In this document: one piece after another, positions 1-21,682 of the stretch
How the letters are laid out: each line of letters starts with the position of its first letter
Position numbering within the stretch: the stretch's first letter is position 1
Source of the DNA: Halovivax gelatinilyticus
GTDB taxonomy: Archaea > Halobacteriota > Halobacteria > Halobacteriales > Natrialbaceae
Length of the DNA stretch: 32,000 nt
Reading direction: 5' to 3'
Assembly: GCF_024300625.1 (NCBI RefSeq)
Contig: NZ_CP101322.1
Coordinates: 43,992-75,991 of the forward strand
Translations under genes and position numbers: made by a program
The notes under the pieces: generated by a model
What the model was told of the DNA's origin: nothing
The model's database searches: none
The model's input: only the letters and a program-made list of their open reading frames with translations

Positions 1-2727
1 ACGTCGCTTCTCGAGGTTGGTATCGATATTCCTGCCATCAAGGTCATCAGCCAATACCGAGCGCCCTGGGAGATGTCCCAGTTCGTTCAGCGCATCGGAC
101 GCGCATCCCGTAAGGAAGGGAACGATGCTCACTTCTTAATCACACTCGGTGACGAAGCCGCTGACAGAAGTCTCTTCCACCGTGCAGGGAGCTTCCTAGA
201 TCCGGAGATTACTACACCACTCAATACTGACAATGAGATTCTGACCTGGATTCACAGTCAGCTCTACAAGGCTTTTCAAACTGTCTATCGGATTAGGAGT
301 GCAGTGACCACCGGTGGGTCGACTCAGCAACAAGAAAAATTCCTCGAGTACTTTCTCCGTCGGTCGGATGAAGAGTCGTTCCAAGCTTTCGGCCAGTTTA
401 TCGAGGAGCCCGGTACAGAACTCACTAGTCTTCTCGAACAGCGGCTCCCGATATCAGGGTCGTTGAACGACCTCGAGACGATCGATGCTGTCTACAGCAC
501 AGTGCTACAGGCGGTCCAAGACGATGCACTCCTGACCGATATCGCGACCCTCCTTGACGAACCGGTCACACGGTTCACACTCCAGACGGGAAGGCTCGAT
601 GATCTAGACGACCAGATGGAGATAGGTATCCGGATGACCATCCAGGAAGTTAGGAACACAATTAACCAAGCTGAACCGCAAAATACTGCCGCCAGGGGCG
701 CTGTCGATGCAATTTCAAATCAACTATCTGAGGCCGAAACTATTCTAGATGACGGGGGTCAAGACAGACGAGACCGATACGATGACTTAGATGAGCTCTT
801 CAACAATGTCCGAAACCAACTAAGCTCGGTGGCATCTGATTTTACGGGCGTTCACGAGTCATTCCCCTATCATCTACGTCTTGAAGACGCAAACAGCGCA
901 ATCCAGGAGGCTCGCGGAATTCGACGTGATGAACAACTCCAGGATAAACGCCAGAGATGGCGGCGCGCGTACTACGTCAAACGGGCACTACAGGAGTACT
1001 ATTGCTTCGTGAATCAGCGTTTCAGTGATAATCAGGTGTATGGGCACCTGATGGTGCGAGCGTTTAAAGCTCTCTTACGAGCAGTGTACTTCTACGACCG
1101 GGCAGTGAACCTCGAATCAACACGTGGAGAACTTGAACCCCCTCACTTTGTGCCGACATCGTATTTCGGTGAAGCCGGCGAGACGTTCTCGGTAGTGCCT
1201 GAAGATCAGGCAGGGGCCCCTGGTGAGGAAGATTCTATAGATGCACTGTATGTCATTCGATTTGAACAAAATGACGACGACGAAGAACAGTTGGATGCGT
1301 CGCTAACCAAACTCTTCTTCGAGTACGCGCCGTATATGTCGAAGTACCTTTCTGACCAGTCACTCCAAATGTTCAATCCGCAGGTAGAGGAAGCCCCAGT
1401 CGACGCCGACGCCGACTACTACTTCGACATCTCCGGATTGAGCACGGAGCCAGGAGAAGACTTGGTCACGCCGAATACCCTGCCCGTGAAACAAGTCGAG
1501 GATCAGTCCGGCGACCAGGCACGCGCGATTGTTTGGTACTGCAATGAATCCCTCTACGTTGGCCGCAATCGGTGGGACCACGGACCACACGGAGAGGATA
1601 CCATGGACTACGGTCAGCTCCACTCAGAGCCGCATATCGGCACGGCGTTCGAACCCGAAGAGAGACCCACTGACCAAATCAGTGTATCGTATATCGATGC
1701 TGACGTGAGTCTCGACGCAGTAACACTGACAATCACGCCGGCAACGCTCGTAGGCGACCCTTCTGCAGAGAGTCCTCCCTTCCGCACCGAACGAGACGCG
1801 CAGCGCGAATTACTGCTGGAGTTCGAGCAACCGCTTGGTTTTTCGCTTCACTCCCGAGGCGTCATCTGGGATATCGGGGATTTCGTTGACGAACTCCTCG
1901 AGGATGAGGAATTCGTAGAAAATTTTGAAAGCCACAATCCAGGGGCCGACATCGAAGATACCATCCATTTTACGGCTGCTCACTTCCTCGTAGAGGTCGT
2001 TGCGGACGTCAGTGGGGTCAACCAGGCACAGATGCTCTACGCCGTCTCTCCAGATGCGAATCAAGTGGCAGTGTTCGAGCATGCTGAAGGGGGACAAGGT
2101 ATCGTTGATCTCTTTGACGACGTACGTAATCGTCTCGAGCACGAGAAGATGCTGCGAACTATTAACCGGGTCGCGTCGAATCCGCAGTTGATCAACGGCT
2201 CGCTCTGGGCCGACAATGAGTTTGTCGTCGCCGTTCGTGCCGGGGACTGGGCGACCGTCGAAGAATTCGTCCGTCAGCGAGTGGTCGTACCGACCGAGTC
2301 CGTGGTCAATGACGTGATGCAAATGGTCCAGAATACGGTCGACCAACTGGACGAATTCGCTGATGTCACTGATACAACGCTGGAGGAAGCCTACGAAATT
2401 CGCCACGCTGCGGCCCGATATCAGTTCGAGGTTGGGATCCACGACCCAGTCGAGGACCTCGAAGACGAAACACCAGACAGCGTTCAAGCGGAGAACCTCC
2501 GGAATCTCATCGTCGAACCCGACGTAGACGACTGTGTTGAAAACTTACATCTCGCATATAGCATCGTCATGGACCAGGGGAATGTCCTCAGCTATCTCGT
2601 CCTCGAGCGGCTTCACGAGCACGTCGTAACAAAGACCGACAGCGACGACTGGGGGGACGAAGTACTGGACCGCGAGGCAATTCCTGGAGTGAATATTGAT
2701 GGTACAAACGTTTTCCATACGCTCTGA
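1..2727 (+). CDS. C-terminal part of an SF2 (DEAD/DEAH) helicase with a long C-terminal extension, truncated by the window edge; DpdJ-like candidate
   Basis: The frame is open from base 1 (TSLLEVGIDIPAIKVISQYRAPWEMSQFVQRIGRASRK), giving helicase motif V (GIDIP) and motif VI (QRIGRASR). An ~850 aa extension follows. It overlaps a PLD gene. Confidence 0.82.
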   Translation, partial: TSLLEVGIDIPAIKVISQYRAPWEMSQFVQRIGRASRKEGNDAHFLITLGDEAADRSLFHRAGSFLDPEITTPLNTDNEILTWIHSQLYKAFQTVYRIRSAVTTGGSTQQQEKFLEYFLRRSDEESFQAFGQFIEEPGTELTSLLEQRLPISGSLNDLETIDAVYSTVLQAVQDDALLTDIATLLDEPVTRFTLQTGRLDDLDDQMEIGIRMTIQEVRNTINQAEPQNTAARGAVDAISNQLSEAETILDDGGQDRRDRYDDLDELFNNVRNQLSSVASDFTGVHESFPYHLRLEDANSAIQEARGIRRDEQLQDKRQRWRRAYYVKRALQEYYCFVNQRFSDNQVYGHLMVRAFKALLRAVYFYDRAVNLESTRGELEPPHFVPTSYFGEAGETFSVVPEDQAGAPGEEDSIDALYVIRFEQNDDDEEQLDASLTKLFFEYAPYMSKYLSDQSLQMFNPQVEEAPVDADADYYFDISGLSTEPGEDLVTPNTLPVKQVEDQSGDQARAIVWYCNESLYVGRNRWDHGPHGEDTMDYGQLHSEPHIGTAFEPEERPTDQISVSYIDADVSLDAVTLTITPATLVGDPSAESPPFRTERDAQRELLLEFEQPLGFSLHSRGVIWDIGDFVDELLEDEEFVENFESHNPGADIEDTIHFTAAHFLVEVVADVSGVNQAQMLYAVSPDANQVAVFEHAEGGQGIVDLFDDVRNRLEHEKMLRTINRVASNPQLINGSLWADNEFVVAVRAGDWATVEEFVRQRVVVPTESVVNDVMQMVQNTVDQLDEFADVTDTTLEEAYEIRHAAARYQFEVGIHDPVEDLEDETPDSVQAENLRNLIVEPDVDDCVENLHLAYSIVMDQGNVLSYLVLERLHEHVVTKTDSDDWGDEVLDREAIPGVNIDGTNVFHTL

Positions 2728-3163
2728 CCAAATCGCCCGATATCTCGGATCGGCGTTTCTCAACGCGACCCGGATAGTCATCGTCTCACCCTGGGTGAGC
2801 GATATCAAGGTCAAGGTCCCAGAGACGGACCAAATTGACGACCGAGAGTTACTGCTCTCTCAAGCGGTGAACCAGTTCGACGTTAACGTGACATTCGTCG
2901 TTGACCCTGCTAATAATGCCCACAACCGGTTACGGGCACAAGCCCTCCTCCCTAAAGTTAGTAGCCATGCGACGATCGAGACTGTAGATAACCTTCATGC
3001 GAAAGCTATTGTCACGGACCAAATTCTCTATCAGGGTTCAGCCAACGTGACCTACCACGGTCTGAATGTCAACGTCGAATTATGTGATCTTCGAGAAAAC
3101 GAATACGAGGACGCAAACGACTTCTTGCGGGAACGAATCGGGCTCGAACTTGGCGAGTCCTAA
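2699..3163 (+). CDS. Phospholipase D-like (single HKD motif) protein, DpdK-like candidate
   Basis: LHAKAIVTDQILYQGSANVTYHGLNVNVE matches the HxK(x)4D...GSxN pattern. The ORF track starts at TTG 2696; ATG 2699 is the likely start. It overlaps the helicase gene by ~29 nt. Confidence 0.8.
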   Translation: MVQTFSIRSDQIARYLGSAFLNATRIVIVSPWVSDIKVKVPETDQIDDRELLLSQAVNQFDVNVTFVVDPANNAHNRLRAQALLPKVSSHATIETVDNLHAKAIVTDQILYQGSANVTYHGLNVNVELCDLRENEYEDANDFLRERIGLELGES

Positions 3164-3507
3164 GCTTCCCGTTTAGAAGTGCTTGAACAAAAGAACACTG
3201 TTAAGAACCCATTTCATTAAAATGAATGATTTCTACTAATGTATCGAATTCATTGGAAAGTATTTGAGACGGGATGTTGAAACCATTTCTGGTCTAAGCA
3301 CATAGGAGGTTACGGTATGATTGACTATCAATTCAGATTATAAAAGCAAGCAATTTTATTCAGAATATTAATTTTAACCCTATATAAGAATGTGTAACTC
3401 AATTGGAATGAGGATCTGATTCTCACAAAGAATGGGAGGCGTTGCCGTTGTGCCTGGCGTGTCCCTGCGGATTGGATGGAGTAGCCAACGGAGTAACCAG
3501 CCTCAGG

Positions 3508-4479
3508 TTAGCGCGGGATATCTGAGTCGGGGCCGACACCGCCAGCATTGACCGCGATCTCGCAAGCGAACTCAAGCGATTTAACAAGATTCTCTACATC
3601 TTCTTCGCTGGAGATAACGCTTCGATTTCCATGCATCACCTTGTTACGGTACTTCTCAACAGTGTCAAAGGCAATTTTGCATCGAGTCTTAGAAGGAAAG
3701 CCCAATTTTTCCATGAGATCCTCGTTATCCCGAACAATTTCCTTCAGGTCAGCAATGGCCATGAATTCGACGGGATGCAAATCTACATTCTCATTGACAG
3801 CGTTTTGCCACCGATCTAAAGCTCTTCCTCTGGACCGCACATCTTGGTATACCATTTGAATTTCATCGAGGCCATACTTCTCTTTGATAAGTTCCGATAC
3901 TGTTTTCGCAGTCTCAGCATAGTAGCTAAACAAGTACTCTTTCGCAGCCCTTGTATTAATGTCAGCATGAGTCACAACCATCCAAGAATCCGGATCAGGG
4001 TGCCTAACTACCGCGAATGGATACTCGGTTAGAATATTTATACAATATAGCATTATGTCATTATAGTTGACGTACTGTTCTTCATCAATTGAGTATACCT
4101 CGCCGGTTTCCACCTCGTAGAATTCACGTGATTTGTATGGTCTAATGGGGGCGTAGTCGTATCCCTTATCCTCAATATCTTTGACAATGTCCGCCATGAT
4201 CTCATTTTGGTCAAGCTCGTTCTGGGCCACGAAGTAGATGGGAGAACCTAAGTCTGATGCGCTACCTTCACTCGGGTATCTAGTGTACTCCTCAACTTCC
4301 TCCTCACTCCAGTACATATGAAAATGCCCGACCGCAACTGACAAAACGTTATTCACATTCCATTTGCCAACTTCTTGAAGTTTATAATACTGTAGATTGT
4401 CGAAATAGATCTGTGCTAAATTATAAATATGTCCACATATCTTATTCCATATAACGTCACCGGGCGCTAACCTTGCCAC
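3508..4479 (-). CDS. Uncharacterised protein with a possible HEPN-like C-terminal helical region
   Basis: Long ORF with a GTG start. C-terminus is FDTVEKYRNKVMHGNRSVISSEEDVENLVKSLEFACEI, resembling the RNxxxHG-type signature of HEPN/Swt1-like tails. Confidence 0.6.
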   Translation of the reverse strand: MARLAPGDVIWNKICGHIYNLAQIYFDNLQYYKLQEVGKWNVNNVLSVAVGHFHMYWSEEEVEEYTRYPSEGSASDLGSPIYFVAQNELDQNEIMADIVKDIEDKGYDYAPIRPYKSREFYEVETGEVYSIDEEQYVNYNDIMLYCINILTEYPFAVVRHPDPDSWMVVTHADINTRAAKEYLFSYYAETAKTVSELIKEKYGLDEIQMVYQDVRSRGRALDRWQNAVNENVDLHPVEFMAIADLKEIVRDNEDLMEKLGFPSKTRCKIAFDTVEKYRNKVMHGNRSVISSEEDVENLVKSLEFACEIAVNAGGVGPDSDIPR

Positions 4480-4733
4480 CTTCTGGTTTGGATGGTGGCA
4501 TCCTAAAACGCTCGATAAAGAGATTCAAGTAGTAACCGGCTGACTTTCAAATACCACGTGATAAAATTACTGTCGTACTATACCTATCCTCTGGATCATG
4601 CACACTAGCTATGTCAGACTCATATCGTTACAATGGCCCTCTGTTTAAAACGGTAGTGTTATTAGATCAATAGCCAAAATATTATTTTCAGTGGAGCAAT
4701 CGGGTTCTGAGTTCCTCCCATAGGATTATCATA

Positions 4734-5204
4734 TCAGCTTGTACGGTAGAGAGCCAACTTAATTGCGGCAGGTCTCTTAGTTACATTGTTGGGATTTACC
4801 CGCATCAGTCCTTGCGGATAGTAGTCCTTCGTATATCCGAAGATGGTATTGACCTTCTGCCGAGAAACAGAAATTTCCTCGAAATCAGTTAGGGTGTATA
4901 TCAAGTTTGATTCTCCGCCGCGCCAATACGTGGTGCTAGCCCAACAGTTGCCGTCCCTGAACTTGGAATTAACCCACGCCGTACCAATGTATGCCCCATT
5001 TTGGTAGAATAGCACAAGATCTCCGCTCTCCATTTTCTCAAAGTTTGCTTCGTTCCTGCTACCGGTTCTTGCACCCCAGAACCGGACTTCATCCTCCCCA
5101 TCCAGTGGTTCTGGGACGTCGCTAACCGCATTCAGGTTGACTACTTCCTGCACAGTATTATCGAAGTTTGGGGAGTCGCAGGGCGCCAAGTACACGTTTT
5201 TCAT
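4734..5204 (-). CDS. Small EVE/PUA-like domain protein (putative modified-base reader)
   Basis: VRFWGARTGSRNEANFEKMESGDLVLFYQNGAYIGTAWV has the W...GDxVLFY...G.yIG..xV pattern seen in EVE-like domains. TATA-like box ~30 nt upstream. Confidence 0.6.
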   Translation of the reverse strand: MKNVYLAPCDSPNFDNTVQEVVNLNAVSDVPEPLDGEDEVRFWGARTGSRNEANFEKMESGDLVLFYQNGAYIGTAWVNSKFRDGNCWASTTYWRGGESNLIYTLTDFEEISVSRQKVNTIFGYTKDYYPQGLMRVNPNNVTKRPAAIKLALYRTS

Positions 5205-5227
5205 GGACTCTACACATAATCATCATT

Positions 5228-5323: not shown

Positions 5324-8300
5324 TCATTCACCGTGCTCACACGGCCCCCCACGGGAGAAAGCATACGGACAAGACCCACACCGAGTCTCAGTGGGTCTCG
5401 CTGACAGTCCCTCCGGCGGTTTCACGGCAACCGACCGGAGGTCATACCGGAGCTCCTCCTCGTAATCGTCGACATCGCCTTCTCGTTCGACAGTTACTGG
5501 CGTGATATCGACTGCCCTGCTATCCTCGTCGACGTCGACGTACAGCAGGGTCAGGTCGCCCACTTCGACATCGTACGTCCGTTCCAGCAACCACGCGTAG
5601 GTCCGAAGCTGCCGTGCATACTTTCCACCGGCGTAGGAGTCGGCGTCGTGGACATCGGTGGTCTTGTAGTCGGCGAGGTGCCAGACGCCGTCCGCTTCGT
5701 ACAAGAGGTCGATCTCGCCGGTGACGGTCACGGTGGTGTCATCAATTTCGAGTGTCGTCGAGACGGTGTATTCGGGGTACACCTCATCGGCGGAAAGTGC
5801 CGCACGATACCGGTCGGAATCTCGCTCCATCGCCTCCACGATCCAGAGCGCGTACTCTCTAATTTCTGGGTCGAGTGTATTCGCGTATCTCGCTAACTGG
5901 TCGCGGCCCAGCAATCGATACTCAAGGACCTTGTGGACCGTGGTCCCCCACTTGTTCGGTGCCACTCCGCCGGGTGTTGACGCCTCTTCGACGGGCTCAC
6001 CGTCTCGATCGAGAGCCGGCCCTCCACCGTAAACCGACGCCACTTCCTGGACGTGCCGGTACTGATACCGGCGCGGACACTCGACGAGGTCGTGAATGCG
6101 CGACGGCGAGATCCGGTTCGGTCGATACGGGATTATTTCCGTTCGGTTCGTGGGGTCGGCGTCGAGGTGCCGATCGACGTCATCCACTGTGATGGGGTTA
6201 TGACTCGTCGGCGACGCCCGCGGCACGTCGTCCACGCCGATTGGAACCGCGCCGTCTCGCGTGTCGAATTCCACGATATCATCTAGCTCCCCCCAACTGG
6301 CGTCGGGAAGGAGCGTCTCGTTGATTGTCGTTGCCCAGGTCGTCCACCGGGTGAAGTTCTCGACCCAATCGGGTACGTCGGCTACGCCGATGAACAGGTG
6401 GTCCTCGGCGCGTGTAAACGCGACGTAGAGAACCCGCCAGAATTCCGCACGGCTCGGAGCCAGAAACTCGTTCAGCGGGTTGGCGTAGGTGAATTCCCCG
6501 GTGTCTTCGTCGACGTCGTTCGAGATCCAGATCGGTCCCGTCAAATCCGGGTATCGACCAGCGTCACGGTCCTCGTTCATCCACGTATCGAGGTTGTCCT
6601 CCGGGGATTCGAAGCTGACAGCGTTCGGCAGTGGACGGTCACTCGCGACGGGCCGTAGCGCCAGCCCGCGGTCACGGTCACTGACGAGTCGATCTGCTTG
6701 GAGTGGCGGCGAGTCCCAGGACCGCAACGCGTCGACGAGAAAGACGATCGGGTACTCCAGTCCCTTGGCCGCGTGAATGGTCGTGAGGGTAACGGTCTCT
6801 TCGTCTTCCGGATCCGTGACTTCAGCGACCGTGTGGTCGGGTTCACCGGTTTCCTCCGCTCGGTTTCGGAGTCGGGTTAGTCGCTCGACGAATTCGCGGT
6901 AGGGCAGCAGCTCCTCTTCTTCCCAGCCGTCGATGATCTGGGTGAGCGCCCAGACGTTGCCGTACCGCCGGATTCCATCCTCGCCGGTGAGCACCACCGC
7001 GTCGAACGCGGAGTGACGGATGATTCGGTTTAACAGGTCGGTCTTCGACCCCTCACGGTCCCATCGCAGGTCGTCGCGGAGTTCGACCAACGCTTTCAGT
7101 CGTTTGCGATCCGCTTCCGGTAGATCGGTAGGCCACGCACCGTCTTCCAGGAACTTGCCGAGATAGAAGCCCTCGCCGGCGATTGCTCGGATCGTGCGAT
7201 CGGAGCAGGCGACGAACGGAGATCGGAGAATTCGCATCAGCGACGCCTTGTCGTGAGGATTTGTGAACCAGTAGAGGACGTCGATGAGAAGCGTCACTTC
7301 CGGCTGCTCGAACAAATCGTCCGTCGCTTTCGGTGCCGCGTCGATACCGTAGGCCGAAAGCGCATCCACGTACCGATGCATGTGTGTCCGCGCCTGGAAG
7401 AGCAGCGTCACGTCCCCCGGCTTCGGCGTTCTTTCTTCGATTCCTTCGTCTTCGTCAATGCCTTCGAAGACGGACACATCGGTTTCACCAGCGACCATCG
7501 CCGCGATTCTGGCCGCCACTTCTTGCGCCTCGACCGGCGTCCAATCCTCACCTCGACTCGGGAAATCATCGCCGAGTCCGAAATCGAGAAGCAACATGTG
7601 GACGTGCGGGAAATCGTCGTCCCAAGACTTTCTCGGACCCTTCGGGCTAACATCGTTGTACGTCACGTTCACGTCGCCGAAATCGCCACGCCCAGCGTCT
7701 TCGAACAGTTCCCCGAAGAGCCCGTTAGCCGCAGTGATCAGATCCGGATGGCTACGGAAGTTGGAAGTCAGCGGCCTGTAGACCACGTCTTCGACCTCGA
7801 GATACGGAATTCGTCCGCCTTCTTCTCCCGCTTCACGCGCCCGGCCCACGATCTCTCCGAAGATACTCGGATCCGCCGACCGCCACTGATAGATCGACTG
7901 TTTCACGTCGCCGATGGCCAGCAATCGCGTCCGGCCACCGACATCCGTTACCAGTTCGCGGAGGACTCGACACTGAGCGGCACTGGTGTCCTGGAACTCG
8001 TCGACGAACACGAAATCGAACCGACGTCGTAGGCTCTCGACAAACGGGTGATCCGGGTTGTCCTCGACGAACGTTCTGAGCAGGTGGGTTGCGTCCTGAT
8101 ACGTCAGGTGGCCGCGCTCGTGAGTCAACTCGTCGTACAGTTGTTCATACGCGTCGAGGATGGTCGCGAAGTCCTCCACGAGCTGGTGTGACCGCTCGTA
8201 GGTGTCCGCCACGTGATCGACGAACGCTTCGCGGGCTCGTTCGGTGGCGTCATCATCGTCGGCAGTGACGGAGAGGTCGGCTCCATCGAAAACGACCGTC

Positions 8301-12000: not shown

Positions 12001-12444
12001 GGCAAGTCGTTCGTGATCGTTGCCGGCATCGGTCGCGCGCCAATATCGATCCAGCTCGGTTCCGAGCGTTTCGTATAGTTCATCATCCCACGTATCCCCG
12101 ATCGATCCAATTAACGCGCGGAGTGCCGTGGGAGCGTCCTCCGCTTGCGCGTCTTCGACGACGCTCCGGAGAAGGCGCTCGGCAACGCGTTGATTCAGGA
12201 TACGCGGATCGCCATTATATCGCTGATCGAGCAGGCTTCGCGAGACGCTCTGAAGCGTCTCGTATTCCGCGACCTGACTCGGTTGAACGCCGCGTTCGAT
12301 CAGTCCCTCTCGAAGGTTCCGCATTGAACGCGCCCCGACGAGCAAACAAAGACCGTTTCCGGAATCGCCAACTGACCGGGGCTGGTCTTCCGCCTTTTCC
12401 CTAAGATACTGAAGTAAAGACCCGGCAGAGACCAGTGTCGCCAT
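9010..12444 (-). CDS. AddB-like protein, partner of the downstream AddA-like gene
   Basis: 1144 aa with inactivated-helicase-like architecture; C-terminal GQCDLKYYFYQF...CEGCSFRDLC Fe-S/nuclease-like region; 4-nt GTGA overlap with the AddA-like ORF. Confidence 0.75.
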   Translation of the reverse strand: MATLVSAGSLLQYLREKAEDQPRSVGDSGNGLCLLVGARSMRNLREGLIERGVQPSQVAEYETLQSVSRSLLDQRYNGDPRILNQRVAERLLRSVVEDAQAEDAPTALRALIGSIGDTWDDELYETLGTELDRYWRATDAGNDHERLAEATARLDDPFACHRNKRALAGLAALTAVLRDRTDPLPPEVFLSESHLTRAARDVLQEEWNRHFGDVEWVAVGTIKSVDNTMLRFFRELDDLEDGPELRFFFGVGSRERLADRFRRTGIDVRIASLESSNTSFFAENLVEAAVEGSRPDGIPDEVRFLDAPDRRREVERVARDIASNVREGSVTPGEHLVIPRETREYEAIIDDVFTTYGLPYHIESDRPLAQVVAYRFLKATVDLIAAAAKGDAVSYHDVVDPLRLGFCPLEDAPGDWPLDDASFLLLEERLHAITTGARLERRTVDEWRKSALEREGESEVWRQVVYFLSWALERAESAPVKGEEVTTLLDGLCQQHVVHVADAPVRRSGGPGVDTTRTDVIRKHPSHLAERVADELAGVGSYYDYLRDLDLAEPGWDLAAQALGDVVGRSQYATSNADGNAVRVVIPANTYFLSAKRAYLLGVGAGEFPAQHPTPTFLHDALSQTVQQYASEGPTDASPLYLPGGEAMYRRELDDYEAAVRTATEGITISRHARDSSGDRVSWSPFVASLTDVLDEADRGYERVRQSHWLPSETHHRDRADVTDTGPMRDRLRLLSYHCERDSTGAVFRPSDGAIESETDAIRLLSNADGPVYRSQIAPRRERFRHPKTTVTVSADEPAFEGDLSLADVVGAPIRPHEVDLMGQCDLKYYFYQFLVARDGPELNRDDWPEEESPYARELYPTVPAVVGNHYVPPSYRRAVEQLVTTHLPNRQADLGAYDDVAALRSDFEMWLGEDDELDESVFQALVGEYLTVTQELESGIDRSWSWRGEQRVEVGDHKLVIPPHRVDTISDIDDPVPVFQSGRQGGARAALKHCWTGTLRPERAERVCWSCERLDQCSIPTKHSIDTRARASAIDEAGGAFLLDRYASGPNGRQGFLLGDDIELVPHEQYVRTNGSTIFEKRTDMWREELEELLDSMTPENETVTYAVSEEFVNNGGCEGCSFRDLCGVPTRDGADESGGEDW

Positions 12445-14607: not shown

Positions 14608-15102
14608 CTAATCAGGATCCGTCACCGATTGGATTTGATCTGATATCTGGACAGTTGTGTACTCTGCGGCCTCAGTCCAGGAACTCTGCCATTCGTTTCC
14701 TTGTTTCGGCGGCTCCAGCGGAAATTCTACTGGATGATACGAGAGGTCGTCAATAGCCCCCGCTGCGATGGCTCCGACGAACTCCGCATTTTTCCGTTTC
14801 GATGAAACACCACCGCTAGCCAAGTCATAATAATTTGTGAATATTTGTGCGACGAGTACGATATCTACGTCAGTTCTTTCGTTGGTAAGATGACGGAAAA
14901 TCTTCGCAGAATTGTCGGCAGGATCAGCTCGCCTCCACTCCAATTCCAAGAGCACGAGCAGTTTGTCGTTTTCTCCACCGATGTCTACCGGTGTTCCGGC
15001 TAGATCATATTCAGTCTGCCATGACAAGCTAGTATTCGATTCACTGAGTCGGTTGTATATGTACGTCTGTACCTTCGAAGCAAATTCACCCATGTCGATC
15101 AA
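14608..15102 (-). CDS. Small protein with possible PD-(D/E)XK nuclease-like core
   Basis: TEYDLAGTPVDIGGENDKLLVLLELEWRRADPADNSAKI resembles D...ExE with a following Asn/Lys helix. It is coupled to the upstream GHKL ATPase. Start is TTG 15102 (4-nt overlap) or ATG 15093. Confidence 0.5.
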   Translation of the reverse strand: MIDMGEFASKVQTYIYNRLSESNTSLSWQTEYDLAGTPVDIGGENDKLLVLLELEWRRADPADNSAKIFRHLTNERTDVDIVLVAQIFTNYYDLASGGVSSKRKNAEFVGAIAAGAIDDLSYHPVEFPLEPPKQGNEWQSSWTEAAEYTTVQISDQIQSVTDPD

Positions 15103-16664
15103 TCGTCGGCGACGGCTCGCGGTGACATTGGTTCAATGTGGTGGCTGAGTGGCAATATCTCGACATAGGTAGGGTTCTCATCCCCGTAAAGTAGGCCGTT
15201 TTCCTCTAGATCAATCTCGATGTCTTCGCCGAGATACCCTTGCCGTTCGTATTCTCGTAACACCACCGGGTCCCCGTGATCCCAGCAAATTATGAGATCT
15301 ACTTCCTCGAACGTCAGCTCCTCATTGAAGTGATTTGTCAATGAACAGTGAACAGCCGCATTGCGAAGTTTCCCGTTCTGACGTGCAATCGCGTGTACGT
15401 CCGAATCCGGCTCGTAATCTTCGACAGAAATCTGTCCTGGTAAGGTATTCTCGTTCTCCCGTGCGAGCGTGAGTAGGACCTCAGTTCGATTCGATGGCTC
15501 ACCGGAGTCCCCCGATTCCACGCGCTCTCGTCGGAGCTTGAGTGAGGCACGGCGGTTCCGAGCTCGGCGTTTAATCTCCGCTTCTCGTCGGATTTCAAGA
15601 TATTCTTTGAACCACGGATCTTGTGCCACTTTCGATAGATGAAATTCGGTCGCTTCTTTGAGCGCCTGGAACACAGGGCTCGATTTATTTCGAATCGTTT
15701 CACGATTGGCTGATAATTCGATATCTTGGCAGTTCACAACAAAGAAGAAGTGAAGGAATTCATTGTCATGAGAGATTGCCTCGTTCAGCCGTTCAACCTT
15801 GATGTGATCCTTTGCAAGCCAGACACCGAACTGTGCGGAATGCTTTCCATAGGTAGGAAGCTCGTTTCGAGCGGCTTTCCCACCGACCATTCCAGTGATG
15901 TGGAGCGTCGTCGTGCCACCATCGTAATCGGCTTCGACCTCTGTCGGTCCGTAGTGTTTACACATTCGCTCGGCAGGGAAATCTGACGAGTAATCGGGCT
16001 CAAGTTGTTCGTTCGGGAACTCAAGTCGGTTCTTCGTCTCAACTTCCGGATATGAATCGTCTATTTCGTCACCAAGACGAACAGTGATGTCCATTTCGTG
16101 CTGATCGTCCTCGAACATGTGTGCCGTCGAGCCGGCGATAGTTTTCCACTTTAGATAATGTTCGATCTTATTATAAGTGAGTGATTCCGGATCGAATCCC
16201 TGACCGGATCGGAAATTGTGGATTCTGATCCTCGTTCCCTTGTGAAGATTGCTTACAGGTGTTTCAGTGACTTCGTACTCAGGAAGTACCCGGTTGTTAA
16301 GTTTTTTCCAAGGGTCACTCATCACCGCCCGGAGGTTGGTGCCATCATGGACGGTATTGACGACGATCTCATCGCTTTTGTAGAATATTTTCGTCCCATG
16401 ACCTTTGTACCCTATCGAATCCGTCTTGCGCGAATTCCCCAAATCGAAAAAGGATTCGAGGTCACGGAGGTCCATGCCGTCTCCATCGTCATCGATGATG
16501 ATGTCAGAGCCCATCTCTCGACTTTTAATCTCGATTTCAATATTTGAAGCATTTGCATCGTACGAGTTCGATAGCGATTCCCGGATTACCTCAAGCGGGT
16601 CCTCGAAGTCGCTCGCAATTTCGAGGAACTCGTTCACTTCGTTGACCTTTGGAGCTTTTTTCAT
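15099..16664 (-). CDS. GHKL (HSP90/MutL/MORC-like) ATPase domain protein
   Basis: N-box VIRESLSNSYDANA, IIIDDDGDGMDLRDL (DxGxG), SIGYKGHGTKIFYKSD, and GTRIRIHNF. 4-nt ATGA overlap with the preceding TGT-like gene. Confidence 0.88.
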   Translation of the reverse strand: MKKAPKVNEVNEFLEIASDFEDPLEVIRESLSNSYDANASNIEIEIKSREMGSDIIIDDDGDGMDLRDLESFFDLGNSRKTDSIGYKGHGTKIFYKSDEIVVNTVHDGTNLRAVMSDPWKKLNNRVLPEYEVTETPVSNLHKGTRIRIHNFRSGQGFDPESLTYNKIEHYLKWKTIAGSTAHMFEDDQHEMDITVRLGDEIDDSYPEVETKNRLEFPNEQLEPDYSSDFPAERMCKHYGPTEVEADYDGGTTTLHITGMVGGKAARNELPTYGKHSAQFGVWLAKDHIKVERLNEAISHDNEFLHFFFVVNCQDIELSANRETIRNKSSPVFQALKEATEFHLSKVAQDPWFKEYLEIRREAEIKRRARNRRASLKLRRERVESGDSGEPSNRTEVLLTLARENENTLPGQISVEDYEPDSDVHAIARQNGKLRNAAVHCSLTNHFNEELTFEEVDLIICWDHGDPVVLREYERQGYLGEDIEIDLEENGLLYGDENPTYVEILPLSHHIEPMSPRAVADD

Positions 16665-17908
16665 TGGAAGTACCCCCCGAGCGAGTGGTTAACTACTCGA
16701 TGAGCAGACTCTCGAGTTGGTTTATCTTGTGCAACAGTGCCTTCGATATACTCGACCAACGATGACGAATCACCTGATTTGACCCGTTGGCGAACCTCTT
16801 CGATCTCTCGTTTTTGAATGATTAAGTTGTGCATAGCTACCGGCCCCAACATGTCTTTTTTATATGGAGCATTTCCACGCATCCACCTTCGCATGTGCTG
16901 AGACGAGCATACTGGGCAATCACACTCGTCAAAATTCGCTTCATTAACGTTCACCGTCTCCATAAGTGATAGGAAATATCCACCGTTGATCGCATTTTGC
17001 AAGTACGTCGATGAATCGAAGGTGTCTACGCCAAGCGCAACAAGTAATGGGACGGCTCTGCTGGAAATTCCGAGAACGTGCAACGGTAATTTGTCGAAAC
17101 CCCAATCGTGTAGCACTTCGTGGCAATCGATTACAGCGTCGATTAGGGCCGACCGATTGTCCTTCATTGGTACGAGACTACCAAGGGCAATTCCGTCGAA
17201 AGACGACCGAAGCTTTTCCGCGCTCACATAGTCAGTTATCTCGGTGAGGAAAGCGTCCATCATCGAGTAGTTATATCCGTGTAAAGTGAGGTACCGGGCC
17301 CCGGTATACTCGTCAGACAGGTCAAGAAATATCTCGATGTTTTTTCCCGTTTTTCGGGCTTTTTCGAGCCGTTCCTCGTGAGTATCGGACGGCGTTATCG
17401 GGTGGTCGAGATTGACGATGATATCACCACCCATTCGTTTCTGTATCTCGAATACTTTCGCTTGATCGATATCCTCTTGGAAGTCGCTTCCATCCAGGCT
17501 TTCATTATTTAAGAATTTGAATCCACCAGAGTCTAGGAAGATAACTCCGTTAAAAGGTGAAAACACCTCTCGTTCTTTTATCGGTTCATAGACATAGTCG
17601 GCATATCGTTCTTTTGAGACGTTGTAGTCGGTGAGGGACGAAACGGAGGTCATGACCGCATCAAAGAATTTCGCGTATGCATCATCCCCCCCAATTCGGT
17701 CAGCTCCGATCATAAACTCCTTGACCGTTCGATGGATACCCCCGCCGTAAACACTATTCTCGGTACCGCCACCGTAAAAATTTACGACCGGGAATAGGTT
17801 TGGTGTTTCAATTACCGAGTCACCAATTGTCAGCTTACCAGCACGGGCGTCTCCCACCGTCTCCGAAACCTCAAAATTTGCCGAATAACTTGTCTTTGAA
17901 TATGACAT
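16661..17908 (-). CDS. Short TGT/DpdA-like transglycosylase (second paralog)
   Basis: VIFLDSGGFKFLN, IIVNLDHPITP, IALGSLVPM, GVDTFDSSTYL. Zn motif CDCPVC-x25-H matches the CxCx2Cx25H pattern. Confidence 0.87.
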   Translation of the reverse strand: MSYSKTSYSANFEVSETVGDARAGKLTIGDSVIETPNLFPVVNFYGGGTENSVYGGGIHRTVKEFMIGADRIGGDDAYAKFFDAVMTSVSSLTDYNVSKERYADYVYEPIKEREVFSPFNGVIFLDSGGFKFLNNESLDGSDFQEDIDQAKVFEIQKRMGGDIIVNLDHPITPSDTHEERLEKARKTGKNIEIFLDLSDEYTGARYLTLHGYNYSMMDAFLTEITDYVSAEKLRSSFDGIALGSLVPMKDNRSALIDAVIDCHEVLHDWGFDKLPLHVLGISSRAVPLLVALGVDTFDSSTYLQNAINGGYFLSLMETVNVNEANFDECDCPVCSSQHMRRWMRGNAPYKKDMLGPVAMHNLIIQKREIEEVRQRVKSGDSSSLVEYIEGTVAQDKPTRESAHRVVNHSLGGYFQ

Positions 17909-18369
17909 TAGTTAACCTTCCTAATACCCGACTCTTCGCCTTGAAGGAACTGTTTGAGCGAGCGCCCCTTCAAACCGATACCATCTCCCTGTACCAGGTA
18001 TGTCTCAACATCTAGTCCTTCATCAAATCCGTCAATGGCCCTTCGATACTCTTTACCAGCGTTAATGACAACTCGTTTATATTGTTTCTCGGTGACCCGA
18101 TTTTTCAGCTCATTCCTTACTTTTGGTCCGAGCTCTTTTGCCCTGTGAGAGTCCATTCTTCGGTCATACGGAGAGATTGGTTCTTCAGGATCGATGATAC
18201 CGTGTTTCGCAGATAGAATACATAAGTCACAATCAGAATATCCGCCTCCCTCTCCCATCGATTTTTTGATAATTTTGAAGAAGTATCCAGAATACAGTTC
18301 GAGGGCAGAGACGGGTTTATCCGGCTCGATTTTGGACTTCGAGCAAGATTGAACGAGCAGCGTCGACAT
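17908..18369 (-). CDS. DUF6884-like standalone protein, probable partner of the short TGT-like protein
   Basis: LLVQSCSKSKIEP, LCILSAKHGIIDPEEPISPYDRRM. TAATG stop/start overlap with the downstream TGT-like gene. Confidence 0.72.
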   Translation of the reverse strand: MSTLLVQSCSKSKIEPDKPVSALELYSGYFFKIIKKSMGEGGGYSDCDLCILSAKHGIIDPEEPISPYDRRMDSHRAKELGPKVRNELKNRVTEKQYKRVVINAGKEYRRAIDGFDEGLDVETYLVQGDGIGLKGRSLKQFLQGEESGIRKVN

Positions 18370-18583: not shown

Positions 18584-19282
18584 TTAATTCATAAAGGACC
18601 TAGGACGTTCACTGTACTCGATTGGATCCCTCGATCCGACGCTTCTGAACGAATCTAGCCGCAACGCACAGGAGTCACAAATCCCACACGCCGGCGCTTC
18701 GTCCCGGTAACACGACCACGTGAGTTCGTACGGAACCTCAAGTTCGAGACCCCGCCCAGCGATTTCCGTCTTCGACCACTCGACGAACGGTGCGACCAGA
18801 TCGATCTCTGTTTCGGGTTTCGTACCGACGTCAACGACCCGCTGGAAGGCGTTAAAGAACTCCGGGCGGCAATCAGGATAGCCTGCGAAATCCTCCGAGT
18901 GCGCACCGATGAACACCGCGGAGCAGTCGTTCGCTTCGGCGTACGAAACAGCCATCGCTAACAGATTCGCGTTCCGGAACGGAACGTACGATGTCGGGAT
19001 TTCGTCGCTCTCAAGGTCCGCATCGGACACCTCAATTTCGTCGTCGGTAAGGCTAGAGGCACCGATTTTCGACAGATGGCTCGTCTCAATGTGCAGAAAG
19101 TCCGCCGCGTTTACTTCCTCTGCCAGCGCTTTCGCGCACTCGTATTCCTTGTTCTCGGTTCGCTGCCCGTACGAGGTATGTAAAAAGTACGGTTGGTAGT
19201 CGCGGTCGATCGCTTCGTAGACCGCGGTCGCACTGTCCATCCCACCTGAAACCAGTATTGCTGCGCGTACGTCGTTACTCAT
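18584..19282 (-). CDS. queC: 7-cyano-7-deazaguanine (preQ0) synthase QueC
   Basis: PP-loop ILVSGGMDSATA, YGQR, SCYRDEAPACGICDSCALR Zn site. Confidence 0.95.
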   Translation of the reverse strand: MSNDVRAAILVSGGMDSATAVYEAIDRDYQPYFLHTSYGQRTENKEYECAKALAEEVNAADFLHIETSHLSKIGASSLTDDEIEVSDADLESDEIPTSYVPFRNANLLAMAVSYAEANDCSAVFIGAHSEDFAGYPDCRPEFFNAFQRVVDVGTKPETEIDLVAPFVEWSKTEIAGRGLELEVPYELTWSCYRDEAPACGICDSCALRLDSFRSVGSRDPIEYSERPRSFMN

Positions 19283-19877
19283 GTGTGTCCACCGCCGAGC
19301 GGAATCGCCACTGTTCGTTTTCGGTCAACTCACCGACTGTAAACTGCGTCGTCGTCTCCGTGGCCGCCTCGACTCCGCGCATTGCTTCGCAGAGGTGCGT
19401 CGCCGCAAGTTCAACCCGTACAGCCTCGGCGTTCACTTCGTTGGCTAACCCTGATGCGATGTCCTGGGTCAGTTTCTCCTGTATCGTCAACCGCCTCGAT
19501 CGCCACCGAACGTAGCGGGCGAGCTTCGAGAGACCGACGACCTCGTCCTTCGGACGATACGCTATGTGAGCAACACCGTGGTACGGTAGCATGTGATGCT
19601 CGCAAAGACTGTACACCGAAATTCCCGTTTTGATCACGAGTTCACCGCTTTCAGCTGCGAAGGTTCGCATCTCGGGTTTCGCCGACTCTCGCTGCCCTTC
19701 TGTGAGTGTCTCGAGAGACGCCGGCATTCGGCGCTGCCAGGTATCCGTCAGTTCTTCGCGGTTAGGATCCTCTCCCAGCGCCTCCAGTAGCATCCGCGTG
19801 GCACGCTGGGCTTTCTGCCAGTCAATGTCGGACGTTTCACTGCTCTCCATGCTCGGTTGCTGGTGCTGTCTTGTCAT
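19275..19877 (-). CDS. folE: GTP cyclohydrolase I (FolE type IA)
   Basis: SVYSLCEHHMLPYHGVAHIAY, VGLSKLARYV, RLTIQEKLTQDIA, AATHLCEAMRG. ORF track starts at 19898; the ATG at 19877 forms an ATGA overlap with the queE stop. Confidence 0.94.
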   Translation of the reverse strand: MTRQHQQPSMESSETSDIDWQKAQRATRMLLEALGEDPNREELTDTWQRRMPASLETLTEGQRESAKPEMRTFAAESGELVIKTGISVYSLCEHHMLPYHGVAHIAYRPKDEVVGLSKLARYVRWRSRRLTIQEKLTQDIASGLANEVNAEAVRVELAATHLCEAMRGVEAATETTTQFTVGELTENEQWRFRSAVDTHE

Positions 19878-20650
19878 GTTCCTGGTTCGTCGTTCCACAG
19901 ATCGACGTGCAGTCGCGGCGTGTAGCGATAGCCACGCTCAAGTGCCAATTCGGCGATCTCGTTTCGTGTGTCGTCCAGTTCGTCTCGGGTCGCCCCTTCT
20001 GGCATCAACAAAACGTCGTCATTGGTCACTGCCGTATCGGTCAACTCTCGGATCTGGCTAACGAGATAATCGACTTCGGACAAATCGTGCGCTTCAGTAA
20101 CGACGAACTTCAATTGGCTATCGTACTGGTCGATCAGCCTTCCGAGCGCTTCGAGATCGATACGCTGTTCTTCATGTCTTATCTCCCACTCCCCGTCTCC
20201 CTTCGGGGCGCGATCGGGTGTGGGTGTACTGCTCGCGAGTTTCGGACTAATGCTCGCCAAATCGATCGTTGCATCTCGATAGGTGGTGCCATTCGTCTCC
20301 ACGGTAGTGTGATAGCCGTGATCGCCCAGTTCGTCCAGGAGTTGGACAGAGCGTTCGTGGATCATCGGTTCCCCGCCGGTCAAGACGACGTGATCCGCGT
20401 TTTCGTACGTGAGAACTTCGTCGATGATATCGTCGATTGTAAGCCATGCTCCGGTCGGTTCCCAGGAGGTGTGGTAGGAGTCGCAAAACCAACACCTGAG
20501 GTTGCAGCCCGACGTTCTGACGAACACAGAGGGGACACCGGCGAGTTTGCCCTCTCCCTGTAACGAGCAGAAGAGTTCGTTTATCGGAAGACCCTCACCT
20601 TCACCAGCGTGTTCGGTGGCGAGTTCCGAAACGTCGCTTGTGACCGGCAT
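19874..20650 (-). CDS. queE: 7-carboxy-7-deazaguanine synthase QueE (radical SAM)
   Basis: LFCSLQGEGKLAGVPSVFVRTSGCNLRCWFCDS has the CxxxCxxC motif; VLTGGEPMI. The ATG at 20650 forms a TAATG overlap with the queD stop; the ORF track starts upstream at 20665. Confidence 0.94.
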   Translation of the reverse strand: MPVTSDVSELATEHAGEGEGLPINELFCSLQGEGKLAGVPSVFVRTSGCNLRCWFCDSYHTSWEPTGAWLTIDDIIDEVLTYENADHVVLTGGEPMIHERSVQLLDELGDHGYHTTVETNGTTYRDATIDLASISPKLASSTPTPDRAPKGDGEWEIRHEEQRIDLEALGRLIDQYDSQLKFVVTEAHDLSEVDYLVSQIRELTDTAVTNDDVLLMPEGATRDELDDTRNEIAELALERGYRYTPRLHVDLWNDEPGT

Positions 20651-21111
20651 TAGTACGTCGCACAAAGTTCGTCAGTCTCTCGAACCGTCACGGATACGTT
20701 TGCGACGTTGTCCGGAAACACCTCCAGCATCCGTTCCTCGAGTAGAACGGACATCACTTCAGCTGTCGGTGGGTGCTGGAGTACGATGAGTGAATCAGCA
20801 TCGCCCGATCGTTCGAAGGCATCGATCAGCGGATCCCCTTCCTCAACGAGAAACATGTGATCCCAGTCGCCGATGACATCAGTTACATCTCCCTTGTCCA
20901 CGATCCAGCCTTCCTCCGCGAGATGACCGGTGATTTCCACCGTAATCTCGTAGTTGTGCCCGTGGGGCCGCGAGCACTTTCCGTCGTGGTGGAGAATCCG
21001 GTGACCCGTGCTGATCCGAATGGGTTTGTTTTCCCCGATTACGAGTGTCCGTTCTTCAGTGTTCGAAAGGAGGGCGCTACCAAAATCACCCCCAGATATT
21101 CTCTGTGGCAT
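20650..21111 (-). CDS. queD: 6-carboxytetrahydropterin synthase QueD
   Basis: STGHRILHHDGKCSRPHGHNYEITVEI, WIVDKGDV, WDHMFL, PPTAEVMS, VRETDELCATY. ATG 21111 (MPQRISGG) preferred over the track's GTG 21135 because a TATA-like box lies ~31-37 nt upstream. Confidence 0.9.
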   Translation of the reverse strand: MPQRISGGDFGSALLSNTEERTLVIGENKPIRISTGHRILHHDGKCSRPHGHNYEITVEITGHLAEEGWIVDKGDVTDVIGDWDHMFLVEEGDPLIDAFERSGDADSLIVLQHPPTAEVMSVLLEERMLEVFPDNVANVSVTVRETDELCATY

Positions 21112-21141
21112 ACCCAAAGAATATCCCGAGTGCACATAAGC

Positions 21142-21148
21142 TTATTTG
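21142..21148 (-). promoter_or_regulatory. TATA-like element of the preQ0 operon (queD)
   Basis: Reverse strand CAAATAA, 31-37 nt upstream of ATG 21111. Confidence 0.35.
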
Positions 21149-21286
21149 TTGATTTGTTCGTACTGCGGAAACGTCTACAACGAATCATCTTCATCTATCA
21201 GTTCATGACTATTATTTGCCGAGAAAACCGAAAGTTACAGATTGAGTTGGGATATGCCCCAATGAATTGTAGAAAGGTGAGGTCTG

Positions 21287-21682
21287 TTAGAGCACTCGGT
21301 CCGAATAATATGACCCAGTGATTCTAATCTCACTCTCATCGACTACATCTACGATTCTTTTCATTAACTGTGCCAGAGGTTCGGTCTGATTTGTGGACGA
21401 TACTTTCATCGCATGTTCGTCAAAGTTGACGACACCATAATCGTCGAGCATCGGAAGATGGGTATGTTTGAGACCAATGTCCGATGATCGTTGTACAGTC
21501 CGGCCGACTGACTCGGAATCCACATCCGCTTCTTCGGCAGCAACCTGTCTACCCAGGTCTGACACCCGAACGGTCACCGTCTCGCTACCTTCCTCGATTT
21601 GAAGATCTAGGAGTAACTCGAGCACGATTCGACGTCGCTCCGACTGGAGAATACGCAGGATGTCCTTCAGTTCCTTACTCAT
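21287..21682 (-). CDS. Winged-helix DUF7344-like haloarchaeal protein (putative transcriptional regulator)
   Basis: LRILQSERRRIVLELLLD...VRVSDLGRQVAAEE...RSSDIGLKHTHLPMLDDYGVVNFDE. Confidence 0.65.
   Translation of the reverse strand: MSKELKDILRILQSERRRIVLELLLDLQIEEGSETVTVRVSDLGRQVAAEEADVDSESVGRTVQRSSDIGLKHTHLPMLDDYGVVNFDEHAMKVSSTNQTEPLAQLMKRIVDVVDESEIRITGSYYSDRVL

Follow-up and report, generated by a model that had tools for sequence, protein, structure and literature searches.

The window analysed here is a 32,000-nt stretch of the Halovivax gelatinilyticus genome (assembly GCF_024300625.1, contig NZ_CP101322.1, positions 43,992–75,991). Its genes were mapped from an open reading frame (ORF) listing and from Pfam, NCBIfam, and PADLOC profile scans of the encoded proteins. 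An earlier note, made from the sequence alone, had read positions 1–21682 as a divergent archaeal counterpart of the bacterial Dpd islands, combining DNA modification and restriction with a preQ0 supply of its own. That reading is supported by gene linkage, by best-match homology, and by an independent preprint of 2025, and every gene class it named is present. The island fits a class that is already named and still hypothetical: by sequence, the window appears to hold most of a BRIGADE Type I system.

BRIGADE systems are Dpd-like systems reported exclusively from halophilic archaea and predicted computationally in a preprint on YprA-family helicases (bioRxiv 10.1101/2025.09.15.676423, September 2025). 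According to the same preprint, their genes include a cluster predicted to be for 7-deazaguanine and, in most cases, a PLD nuclease, and in Type I an ARMADA-like helicase occurs together with one from the Dpd branch of the YprA family. The genes of the window that belong, or may belong, to the system are as follows.

1–2727, plus strand: DpdJ-like SF2 helicase, C-terminal ~908 residues (motifs V and VI; PADLOC DpdJ)
2696–3163, plus strand: DpdK-like PLD nuclease, 155 residues (PLDc_2; PADLOC DpdK)
12536–14542, minus strand: fusion of a TGT domain and a DUF5591 domain, 668 residues (PF01702, 5.5e-27; PF17884, 6e-21)
14608–15102, minus strand: orf164, with a predicted PD-(D/E)xK fold (AlphaFold and Foldseek)
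15099–16664, minus strand: GHKL ATPase (HATPase_c_3, 1.2e-13)
16661–17908, minus strand: TGT415, a stand-alone transglycosylase of 415 residues (PF01702, 1.8e-29)
17908–18369, minus strand: DUF6884 protein, 153 residues (PF21818, 1.2e-16)
18584–19282, minus strand: QueC (PF06508, 4.3e-69)
19275–19898, minus strand: FolE, a type I GTP cyclohydrolase (PF01227, 2.4e-52)
19874–20665, minus strand: QueE-like radical SAM enzyme (Radical_SAM, 1.9e-16)
20650–21135, minus strand: QueD (PTPS, 3.7e-19)
21287–21682, minus strand: small DUF7344 protein (PF24035, 1.3e-17)
22053–26483, plus strand: DNA2-like protein with a PD-(D/E)xK nuclease and an SF1 helicase, 1476 residues (PDDEXK_1; AAA_11/AAA_12)

Twelve genes run on the minus strand from 21135 down to 5324, with gaps of at most 214 bp and several overlaps of 1–25 bp, in agreement with the same-strand, near-continuous layout described in the earlier note. 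The range given there is right as to its gene list but not as to its ends: the last ORF (21287–21682) encodes the DUF7344 protein rather than a pathway enzyme, and the right limit of the system probably extends to 26483. On the left, the helicase frame is already open at base 1, and bases 1–110 encode motifs V and VI (TSLLEVGIDI...QRIGRASR). The window edge cuts the DpdJ-like gene at base 1 and truncates the system; about 450 N-terminal residues of the helicase lie upstream. The window scans found no tRNA gene and no Rfam family, and hence neither a preQ riboswitch nor a tRNA integration site.

The window was compared, by tblastn and clustering of all ORFs, with 12 archaeal loci that encode a relative of TGT415 (L001–L008 and L011–L014). 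The loci come from Haloferax, Natrinema (three), Natronorubrum, Haloplanus, Halovenus, Natranaeroarchaeum, Halobacterium, a Halorutilales archaeon, and Nanohaloarchaeota (two). The genes for the DUF6884 protein, the TGT, and the GHKL ATPase adjoin one another in a single order and on a single strand in 13/13 loci, down to 49% identity, and overlap or nearly abut. Since this core triad keeps the same order in all 13 loci, its linkage is more than chance. The core spans Halobacteria and Nanohaloarchaeota, and no other groups occur among the relatives. A helicase of ~1350 residues followed by a small PLD protein is found in 8/13 loci, and the TGT-DUF5591 fusion stands beside the core in eight as well. 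Genes for preQ0 synthesis or salvage accompany the core in five: two loci (the window and L005) have all four preQ0 genes, and three (L007, L008, and L012) have a Vut_1/YhhQ-family transporter with or without QueC. Linkage in other haloarchaeal genomes, on which the earlier note had made its reading depend, is borne out both for the triad and for the DpdJ/DpdK-like genes.

The nanohaloarchaeal and Halorutilales copies contain no FolE, QueD, or QueE (L007 1796–3200; L008 100–624 and 8721–10627; L012 6733–7410). All three encode the transporter and a GIY-YIG protein, QueC is present in the two nanohaloarchaeal loci only, and L008 also encodes a stand-alone McrB_N-type DNA reader. A transporter in place of FolE, QueD, and QueE implies that a 7-deazaguanine precursor is salvaged, possibly from the haloarchaeal host. 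YhhQ is described as a preQ0 transporter (PMC5372724). Another copy, on a plasmid of Natrinema sp. SYSU A 869 (L014), looks like a decaying megaplasmid version of the system. Its DUF6884 gene is matched as two pieces in different frames (19523–19953), and its helicase/PLD pair lies ~17 kb from the core, past an integrase fragment.

TGT415 consists of the catalytic domain alone and lacks the C1, C2, and PUA domains in the Pfam scan. In an alignment with the ArcTGT of Pyrococcus horikoshii (1iq8, 1e-21), the counterparts of D95, D130, and D249, the CxCxxC motif, and the histidine are kept, and the catalytic aspartates and zinc-binding residues are invariant across 12 loci. The protein matches the TgtA model (4.6e-34) below its equivalog cut-off (117.6 vs 350 bits) and the NCBIfam DpdA model far below its own (27.7 vs 200 bits; PADLOC DpdA, 8e-7). 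Its clade is narrow, since a search of 1.84 billion proteins gave 23 representatives at E<1e-30, and homologs are located on haloarchaeal megaplasmids.

A canonical ArcTGT or ArcS identity for either TGT is rejected on domain content and NCBIfam cut-offs. A viral DpdA origin of TGT415 is also rejected: the phage relatives amount to two weak matches, to the tgt of an Acinetobacter jumbo phage (24.9% identity, E 2e-6), and the search gave no match to haloviruses or to named phage DpdA. Both TGTs appear by sequence to derive from the archaeal ArcTGT/ArcS enzymes and not from the DpdA family. The earlier note was correct in seeing two transglycosylases, but the DpdA half of its TGT/DpdA-like label does not apply to them. 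By analogy with DpdA, TGT415 is predicted to be a DNA transglycosylase that exchanges guanine for preQ0, and thus a functional analogue of that enzyme.

Two further sets of TGT relatives lie outside the archaeal comparison. A 5-kb contig labelled Streptomyces sanglieri carries adjoining TGT and GHKL genes 60–64% identical to haloarchaeal ones (locus tags 059550 and 059540); the label probably reflects contamination or mislabelling. Two Bradymonadales metagenome-assembled genomes (L009 and L010) encode a TGT ~25% identical to TGT415 within a common neighbourhood of ~10 conserved genes (clusters C27–C37), which could represent a bacterial TGT-based system of another kind.

The second transglycosylase is a fusion of a TGT domain with an ArcS-type DUF5591 domain. 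The latter carries the ArcS signature PC-x3-KPY-x2-S-x2-H as PCSQQKPYSRSRTH at residues 521–534, and within this segment the P, C, K, P, Y, S, R, and T are invariant in 8 fusion orthologs. The TGT domain is equally well preserved in these orthologs, with invariant aspartates (FIDSGGF, LDYP, and FDCS), cysteines (C350, C355, and C358), and H402. The fusion stays below the cut-offs for ArcS (112.9 vs 440 bits) and TgtA (104.6 vs 350 bits). Its C-terminus extends ~35 residues past DUF5591, and no PUA domain is matched in Pfam. The fusion is predicted to process or insert 7-deazaguanine in DNA. A DUF5591-only relative, ArcS2 of Vibrio phage nt-1, yields dG+ in plasmid DNA when expressed with DpdA2 (PMC10516641).

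The GHKL gene directly follows the TGT gene in all 13 loci. The predicted structure of its product (pLDDT 79.4) comprises a Bergerat fold, a transducer domain, a long helix, and a small C-terminal domain. Across 41 sequences, no change is seen in the motifs E29/N33/D36, D59xGxG63, and G85xxGxG90. In Foldseek, the model matches Hsp90, MORC3/4/2, GyrB, and ParE over ~400–430 columns (E ~1e-12), and the N-terminus resembles restriction enzymes of the BbrUII/HgiDII family (5.4e-11). Bacterial DpdA needs the ATPase DpdB to insert preQ0 in vitro (PMC10164549), and no window protein matched DpdB or ParB in PADLOC, Pfam, or NCBIfam. The simplest reading, by analogy, is that the GHKL ATPase, invariant beside the TGT, fills the role of DpdB.

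The product of orf164 has no Pfam, NCBIfam, or PADLOC match, and its 512 homologs are haloarchaeal and are annotated as hypothetical without exception. Residues E31, D40, E53, E55, R57, R58, D60, and K67 are invariant. The AlphaFold model (pLDDT 92.9) displays an alpha-beta-beta-beta-alpha-beta fold, and the leading Foldseek matches are SfsA, NucS/EndoMS, MspJI, Can2, and McrC (E ~1e-3); nearly all leading PDB matches are PD-(D/E)xK nucleases. The predicted structure agrees with the nuclease-like protein of the earlier note and makes orf164 a putative PD-(D/E)xK-fold nuclease. The gene is found in four of the 13 loci (the window, L002, L003, and L004), and its first 4 bp are also the last 4 bp of the GHKL gene. 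Its place is taken by a GIY-YIG protein in L007, L008, and L012 (Pfam-tested on the L008 member), and no small nuclease was detected near the triad in the remaining six (L001, L005, L006, L011, L013, and L014).

The DUF6884 protein contains two invariant motifs, CxxxK (C9..K13) and LSAxxG (L52–G57). It matches PF03883 (YaaA/DUF328) at 2e-5 and 24.7 bits, below the gathering score of 29.6. Among the PADLOC models, PDC-M57A scores 5.5e-13 and the DpdC models 0.0015 and 0.006. A PDB sequence search gave only a chance match to nucleolin. DpdC is itself a DUF328/PF03883 protein that turns dPreQ0 into dADG in DNA, and the Pfam curators regard DUF6884 as distantly related to YaaA and probably a base-flipping DNA binder. 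Our own profile comparison of the DUF6884 family with E. coli YaaA is weak (hhalign, E 0.0036, probability 9%, LSAxxG region only), and homology to DpdC is therefore graded as probable but distant. The earlier note had seen neither a dpdB nor a dpdC homolog in the window; this holds for dpdB but probably not for dpdC. The DUF6884 protein is predicted to act on dPreQ0 in DNA.

The route from GTP to preQ0 by way of FolE, QueD, QueE, and QueC is an established pathway, and all four of its genes are present in the window, as the earlier note had it. QueC and FolE score above their cut-offs (181 vs 150 bits for TIGR00364; 169.6 vs 162 bits for NF006826), and QueD scores below (68 vs 89 bits for TIGR03367). 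For the QueE-like protein, the top NCBIfam matches are five QueE models (1.4e-29 and weaker), all under their cut-offs, and its gene stands between those of QueD and FolE in the window and in L005 alike. Most archaea use FolE2 rather than type I FolE (PMC5699537); the type I enzyme of the island is consistent with an imported cassette. The DUF7344 protein is possibly the operon regulator. Its only tie to the system is its position upstream of QueD, and it has no counterpart in the other loci at 1e-3.

The helicase and PLD genes at the left edge, noted earlier as a pair, have DpdJ and DpdK as their best matches. For the helicase fragment, the top PADLOC match is DpdJ (6.1e-10). Orthologs of 1345–1362 residues occur in L002, L003, L004, L008, L012, and L013, and the L004 ortholog (1358 residues) matches DpdJ at 1e-50, against 1.6e-29 for BrxHI and far ahead of DruE and DrmA. 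No PF09369/MZB match and no 4-Cys cluster were found in the window helicase. These best profile matches place the helicase, as far as sequence can tell, in the Dpd branch of the YprA family. The PLD gene overlaps the helicase gene and follows it in the window, L002, L003, L004, L008, L012, L013, and L014. Its product (PLDc_2, 1.9e-6) matches PADLOC DpdK (1.7e-15) ahead of DrmC (9e-8) and does not reach the NCBIfam DpdK equivalog cut-off (55.6 vs 100 bits). In Natrinema mahii (L004 7267–9304), a NucS-like endonuclease and a protein with the nucleotide-modification-associated domain 3 (Nmad3) are encoded between the PLD gene and the DUF6884 gene.

Sister loci indicate what precedes base 1. They encode a protein of 965–980 residues (the 979-residue L001 copy matches DpdH weakly, 1.5e-5) and one of 225–250 residues. 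Both lie directly upstream of the DpdJ-like gene in L004, and the smaller one alone in L013. From this gene order, the DpdH-like and ~225-residue proteins are expected upstream of base 1, and an ARMADA-like helicase is expected there too. No DpdG or DpdHI/BrxC-like protein was found among the window proteins. A second helicase of ~1560–1590 residues is present in L005, L011, and L012; the L011 and L012 copies contain DEAD, Helicase_C, and MZB domains, and the top PADLOC match of the L011 copy is DruE.

The DNA2-like protein to the right contains PDDEXK_1 at residues 90–279 and AAA_11/AAA_12 at 970–1407, and matches PADLOC MkoA (1.1e-41). No counterpart was found in the other loci compared. Because the gene is adjacent and in view of the preprint's statement on BRIGADE, its product is a probable accessory effector of BRIGADE Type I.

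Four genes within the island stand apart from the system.

3508–4479, minus strand: orf323 (R-x4-H HEPN-type motif at its end)
4734–5204, minus strand: orf156 (match to a YTH-like McrB N-terminal domain)
5324–9013, minus strand: AddA-like protein, UvrD and PDDEXK_1 (addA_Gpos, 3.7e-67)
9010–12444, minus strand: AddB-like protein

All four are absent from the 12 other loci, and they are interpreted as neighbours because they do not accompany the core elsewhere and because the AddAB-like pair also turns up by itself, in another defence island. That copy, on a plasmid of Halalkalicoccus sp. CGA53 (L015 9001–16091), is 36–42% identical to the window pair and has an HNH gene on one side and a McrBC-like pair (DUF3578) on the other, with a methyltransferase gene nearby. 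This suggests that the AddAB-like pair is a mobile two-gene helicase–nuclease module of haloarchaea, serving defence or repair. The G+C content also differs between blocks, being 0.43 at 3–5 kb, a host-like 0.56–0.64 at 5–12 kb (AddAB-like), and 0.47–0.58 at 12–22 kb (TGT and preQ0 genes); that of the right flank, 0.59–0.66, is above the 0.47–0.58 of the island. Membership of the AddAB-like, orf323, and orf156 genes in the system is therefore rejected, and the island is a conserved system into which two unrelated defence modules are inserted.

The orf323/orf156 pair (3508–5204) has the low G+C of 0.43. The orf156 product is similar to part of the McrB of Thermococcus gammatolerans, its YTH-like N-terminal domain, which binds modified DNA (6p0f, E 2.3e-4). 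The C-terminal end of orf323 contains the motif YRNKVMHGN, of the R-x4-H HEPN type, and the protein gives weak matches to the PDC-M34B and DS11 anti-phage models. From these features, the pair is possibly a stand-alone reader and effector aimed at modified DNA. The EVE-like reader of the earlier note is a roughly correct description of orf156 as a PUA-superfamily reader of modified bases, and the AddAB-like pair is present as described (5324–12444); both belong to separate modules and not to the system.

To the right of the DNA2-like gene are an AAA_14/DUF4143 ATPase, a VWA-domain protein, and unknowns. The ATPase (27120–28688, minus strand; PADLOC PDC-S01, 9.7e-20) is encoded a few kb away from the TGT module. 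In the Haloferax locus, an ATPase 48% identical to it (L001 15326–16921) is likewise a few kb from the TGT module and is followed by genes for a PLD/Aq_aa27 protein and a Piwi protein. The C-terminus of the VWA-domain protein (28934–31090, plus strand) faintly resembles a pPIWI_RE-associated restriction-endonuclease domain (E 0.004).

7-Deazaguanines are known from bacterial and viral DNA. We consider it probable that the island is a haloarchaeal counterpart of Dpd, a BRIGADE Type I system that marks the cell's own DNA with 7-deazaguanine and destroys unmarked foreign DNA. FolE, QueD, QueE, and QueC, assigned by family, would make preQ0 from GTP. TGT415 would then replace guanines in the cell's own double-stranded DNA with preQ0, as DpdA does, and the GHKL ATPase would provide ATP-dependent clamping or opening of the DNA, as DpdB does in bacteria. 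The DpdC-like DUF6884 protein could convert the nitrile of dPreQ0 to the amide (dADG), and the ArcS-type domain of the fusion, where present, could convert it to an amidine (dG+, or a lysine adduct). DNA lacking the mark would be attacked by the DpdJ-like helicase and the DpdK-like PLD nuclease, probably with orf164 and the DNA2-like nuclease–helicase as auxiliary effectors. The gene identities, intact catalytic motifs, and conserved linkage on which this scheme builds are directly observed; the choice of DNA as substrate, the identity of the final base, what the GHKL ATPase does, and the restriction step are what we infer.

Several points weigh against this scheme. The closest characterised relatives of both TGTs, ArcTGT and ArcS, are tRNA enzymes, and the DpdA model reaches only 27.7 bits. 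The exchange of DpdB for a GHKL ATPase is an analogy, and the GHKL protein could instead be a restriction component acting with the adjoining small nuclease. The relation of DUF6884 to DpdC is weak (E 2e-5 to 6e-3, besides the low hhalign probability). No more than 7 of 12 loci have the helicase and PLD genes less than 10 kb away from the core, an eighth being L014 with the distant pair mentioned above. The ARMADA-like helicase and the DpdG/H/I-like genes of Type I fall outside the window, which starts inside the DpdJ-like gene. Finally, 7-deazaguanine in an archaeal chromosome is unsupported by experiment: BRIGADE is purely computational, and our literature search found no report of the base in archaeal cellular or chromosomal DNA.

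Four other explanations were weighed. The GHKL protein may be the sensor and motor of a split GHKL–nuclease restriction effector, with TGT415 inserting preQ0 without an ATPase or with host factors. This is a serious rival because the fold of orf164 is predicted with confidence and GHKL–nuclease defence proteins are known, among them VcSduA, a fusion of a GHKL ATPase and a PD-(D/E)xK nuclease (PMC12137116). It also draws on the 4-bp overlap of orf164 with the GHKL gene, on the GIY-YIG protein that follows the GHKL gene in L012 and stands beside the triad in L007 and L008, and on the BbrUII/HgiDII-like N-terminus. However, in six of the 13 loci the triad occurs and no small nuclease was detected in its vicinity, the constant neighbour of the GHKL gene is the TGT gene and not a nuclease, and the C-terminal domain of the GHKL protein contains no nuclease motif. 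We regard a split effector as rather unlikely. The idea that the whole 21.7-kb range is a patchwork of independent, co-directional defence modules is a little stronger and still doubtful. It is partly true, as seen from the AddAB-like and orf323/orf156 pairs and from the sharp G+C steps, but the linkage of the helicase, PLD, both TGTs, GHKL, DUF6884, orf164, and preQ0 genes recurs across families and phyla and fits the BRIGADE architecture.

The remaining two explanations concern the substrate. The TGT module might act on RNA, in an alternative or extra archaeosine-type tRNA pathway or on viral or host RNA, and merely be sited in a defence island. The match to ArcTGT and TgtA, the conserved ArcS motif, and the fact that preQ0 is the normal substrate of the archaeal tRNA enzyme agree with this. 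Yet both TGTs lack the C2 and PUA tRNA-binding domains and score under the equivalog cut-offs, the family is narrow, divergent, and found on megaplasmids in an island of low G+C, the module is linked to DpdJ/K/H-like genes and nucleases, and DUF6884/YaaA proteins are counted as DNA binders. An RNA substrate is improbable. Even more so is protein deazaguanylation as in type IV CBASS, in which the TGTs would handle a base conjugated to a partner protein such as the GHKL ATPase. Defence homologs of QueC and TGT (Cap9, QueC-like; Cap10, TGT-like) are reported to modify a protein (bioRxiv 10.1101/2025.04.06.647259), and L007 and L008 keep QueC as the sole biosynthetic gene. Cap10, however, is described in that preprint as a remodelled TGT-family enzyme, whereas the catalytic aspartates and zinc ligands are invariant here. 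In addition, QueC passes the biosynthetic equivalog cut-off, the CBASS-type TGT model of PADLOC scores only 6e-4, the window contains no CD-NTase, and the presence of the full preQ0 pathway and a preQ0-type transporter suggests that the substrate is the free base.

A more specific version of the favoured Dpd-like scheme is put forward tentatively, as possible but doubtful. The chromosomes of carrier haloarchaea may bear a hypermodified 7-deazaguanine, the first cellular dG+ or preQ0-lysine-type adduct in DNA. It would be made independently of DpdAB by an ArcTGT-derived transglycosylase that depends on a MORC-like GHKL clamp, together with a second active TGT–ArcS fusion, and nanohaloarchaeal symbionts would use a salvaged precursor. 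If the module works as predicted, archaea have turned the archaeosine enzymes of their tRNA pathway to the marking of DNA, and base insertion into duplex DNA was solved with a GHKL rather than a ParB-like ATPase, a clean case of convergent assembly of restriction–modification (R-M). The three-gene core is small enough for transfer to Haloferax volcanii, where the BRIGADE prediction would be directly testable. The core could also yield new DNA-labelling transglycosylases for high salt.

Two known defence systems are set aside as identities for the island. Type IV CBASS does not fit, for there is no CD-NTase in the window, the Cap10-type TGT match is poor, and QueC is a canonical equivalog. DISARM does not fit either: the window helicase is a single gene, the DrmA and DrmC matches are much below those to DpdJ and DpdK, and no methyltransferase is encoded in the window.

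Bacterial Dpd (dpdA–K, as in Salmonella Montevideo) shares with the island the preQ0 genes, an enzyme of the TGT family, a DpdJ-like helicase, and a DpdK-like PLD, probably a distant DUF328 relative, as well as a DpdH-like protein in the sister loci and the character of a horizontally mobile island. The two differ in that the transglycosylase of the window appears to be ArcTGT-derived and not DpdA, an invariant GHKL ATPase is present and the ParB-like DpdB is not, the probable DpdC relative is a short DUF6884 form of 153 residues, and there is a second TGT, which carries a fused ArcS-type domain. None of the window proteins was recognised as DpdD, DpdE, or DpdF. The viral pairs of DpdA and ArcS2 (Vibrio phage nt-1, Sulfolobus virus STSV2; DpdA4 of haloviruses) have in common with the island a PUA-less DUF5591 domain with PC-x3-KPY-x2-S-x2-H, a DNA transglycosylase, and preQ0. 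They serve anti-restriction, whereas the window system is cellular and linked to restriction, and its C1 domain forms one protein with a complete TGT domain whose residues suggest activity.

ArcTGT (TgtA) and ArcS are the closest sequence relatives of the two TGTs and share with them the catalytic aspartates, the zinc site, the ArcS motif, and the base preQ0. The window TGTs differ by the absence of C2 and PUA, by scores far under the equivalog cut-offs, by their location in a defence island, and by forming a narrow, divergent clade. For the GHKL ATPase, the comparison is with the MORC/paraMORC-type GHKL ATPases of R-M systems and with GHKL-Shedu (VcSduA), which likewise combine a Bergerat ATPase and a transducer in a defence context with an adjoining PD-(D/E)xK protein. 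The window GHKL protein is instead always coupled to a TGT; its nuclease is a separate and optional gene, and DUF4263 is absent.

With BRIGADE Type I itself, the island shares the halophilic host, the Dpd-branch YprA helicase, the 7-deazaguanine cluster, the adjacent DNA2-like nuclease–helicase, and a small PLD nuclease (155 residues) that has no four-helix bundle domain. No difference in kind was found, the left part of the window's system being cut. The discovery value of the window is limited by the class having already been named. In the window, the cluster consists of FolE, QueD, QueE, QueC, two TGTs, and a DUF6884 protein. TGT, GHKL, and DUF6884 proteins have no occurrence in the consulted text and supplements of the BRIGADE preprint. 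The present analysis goes beyond it in describing the anatomy of the modification module, namely the ArcTGT-derived TGT, the GHKL ATPase, the DUF6884 protein, and the ArcS-type fusion. It also adds the invariance of the module and its occurrence in Nanohaloarchaeota with salvage genes, and it sets the AddAB-like and reader genes apart from the system.

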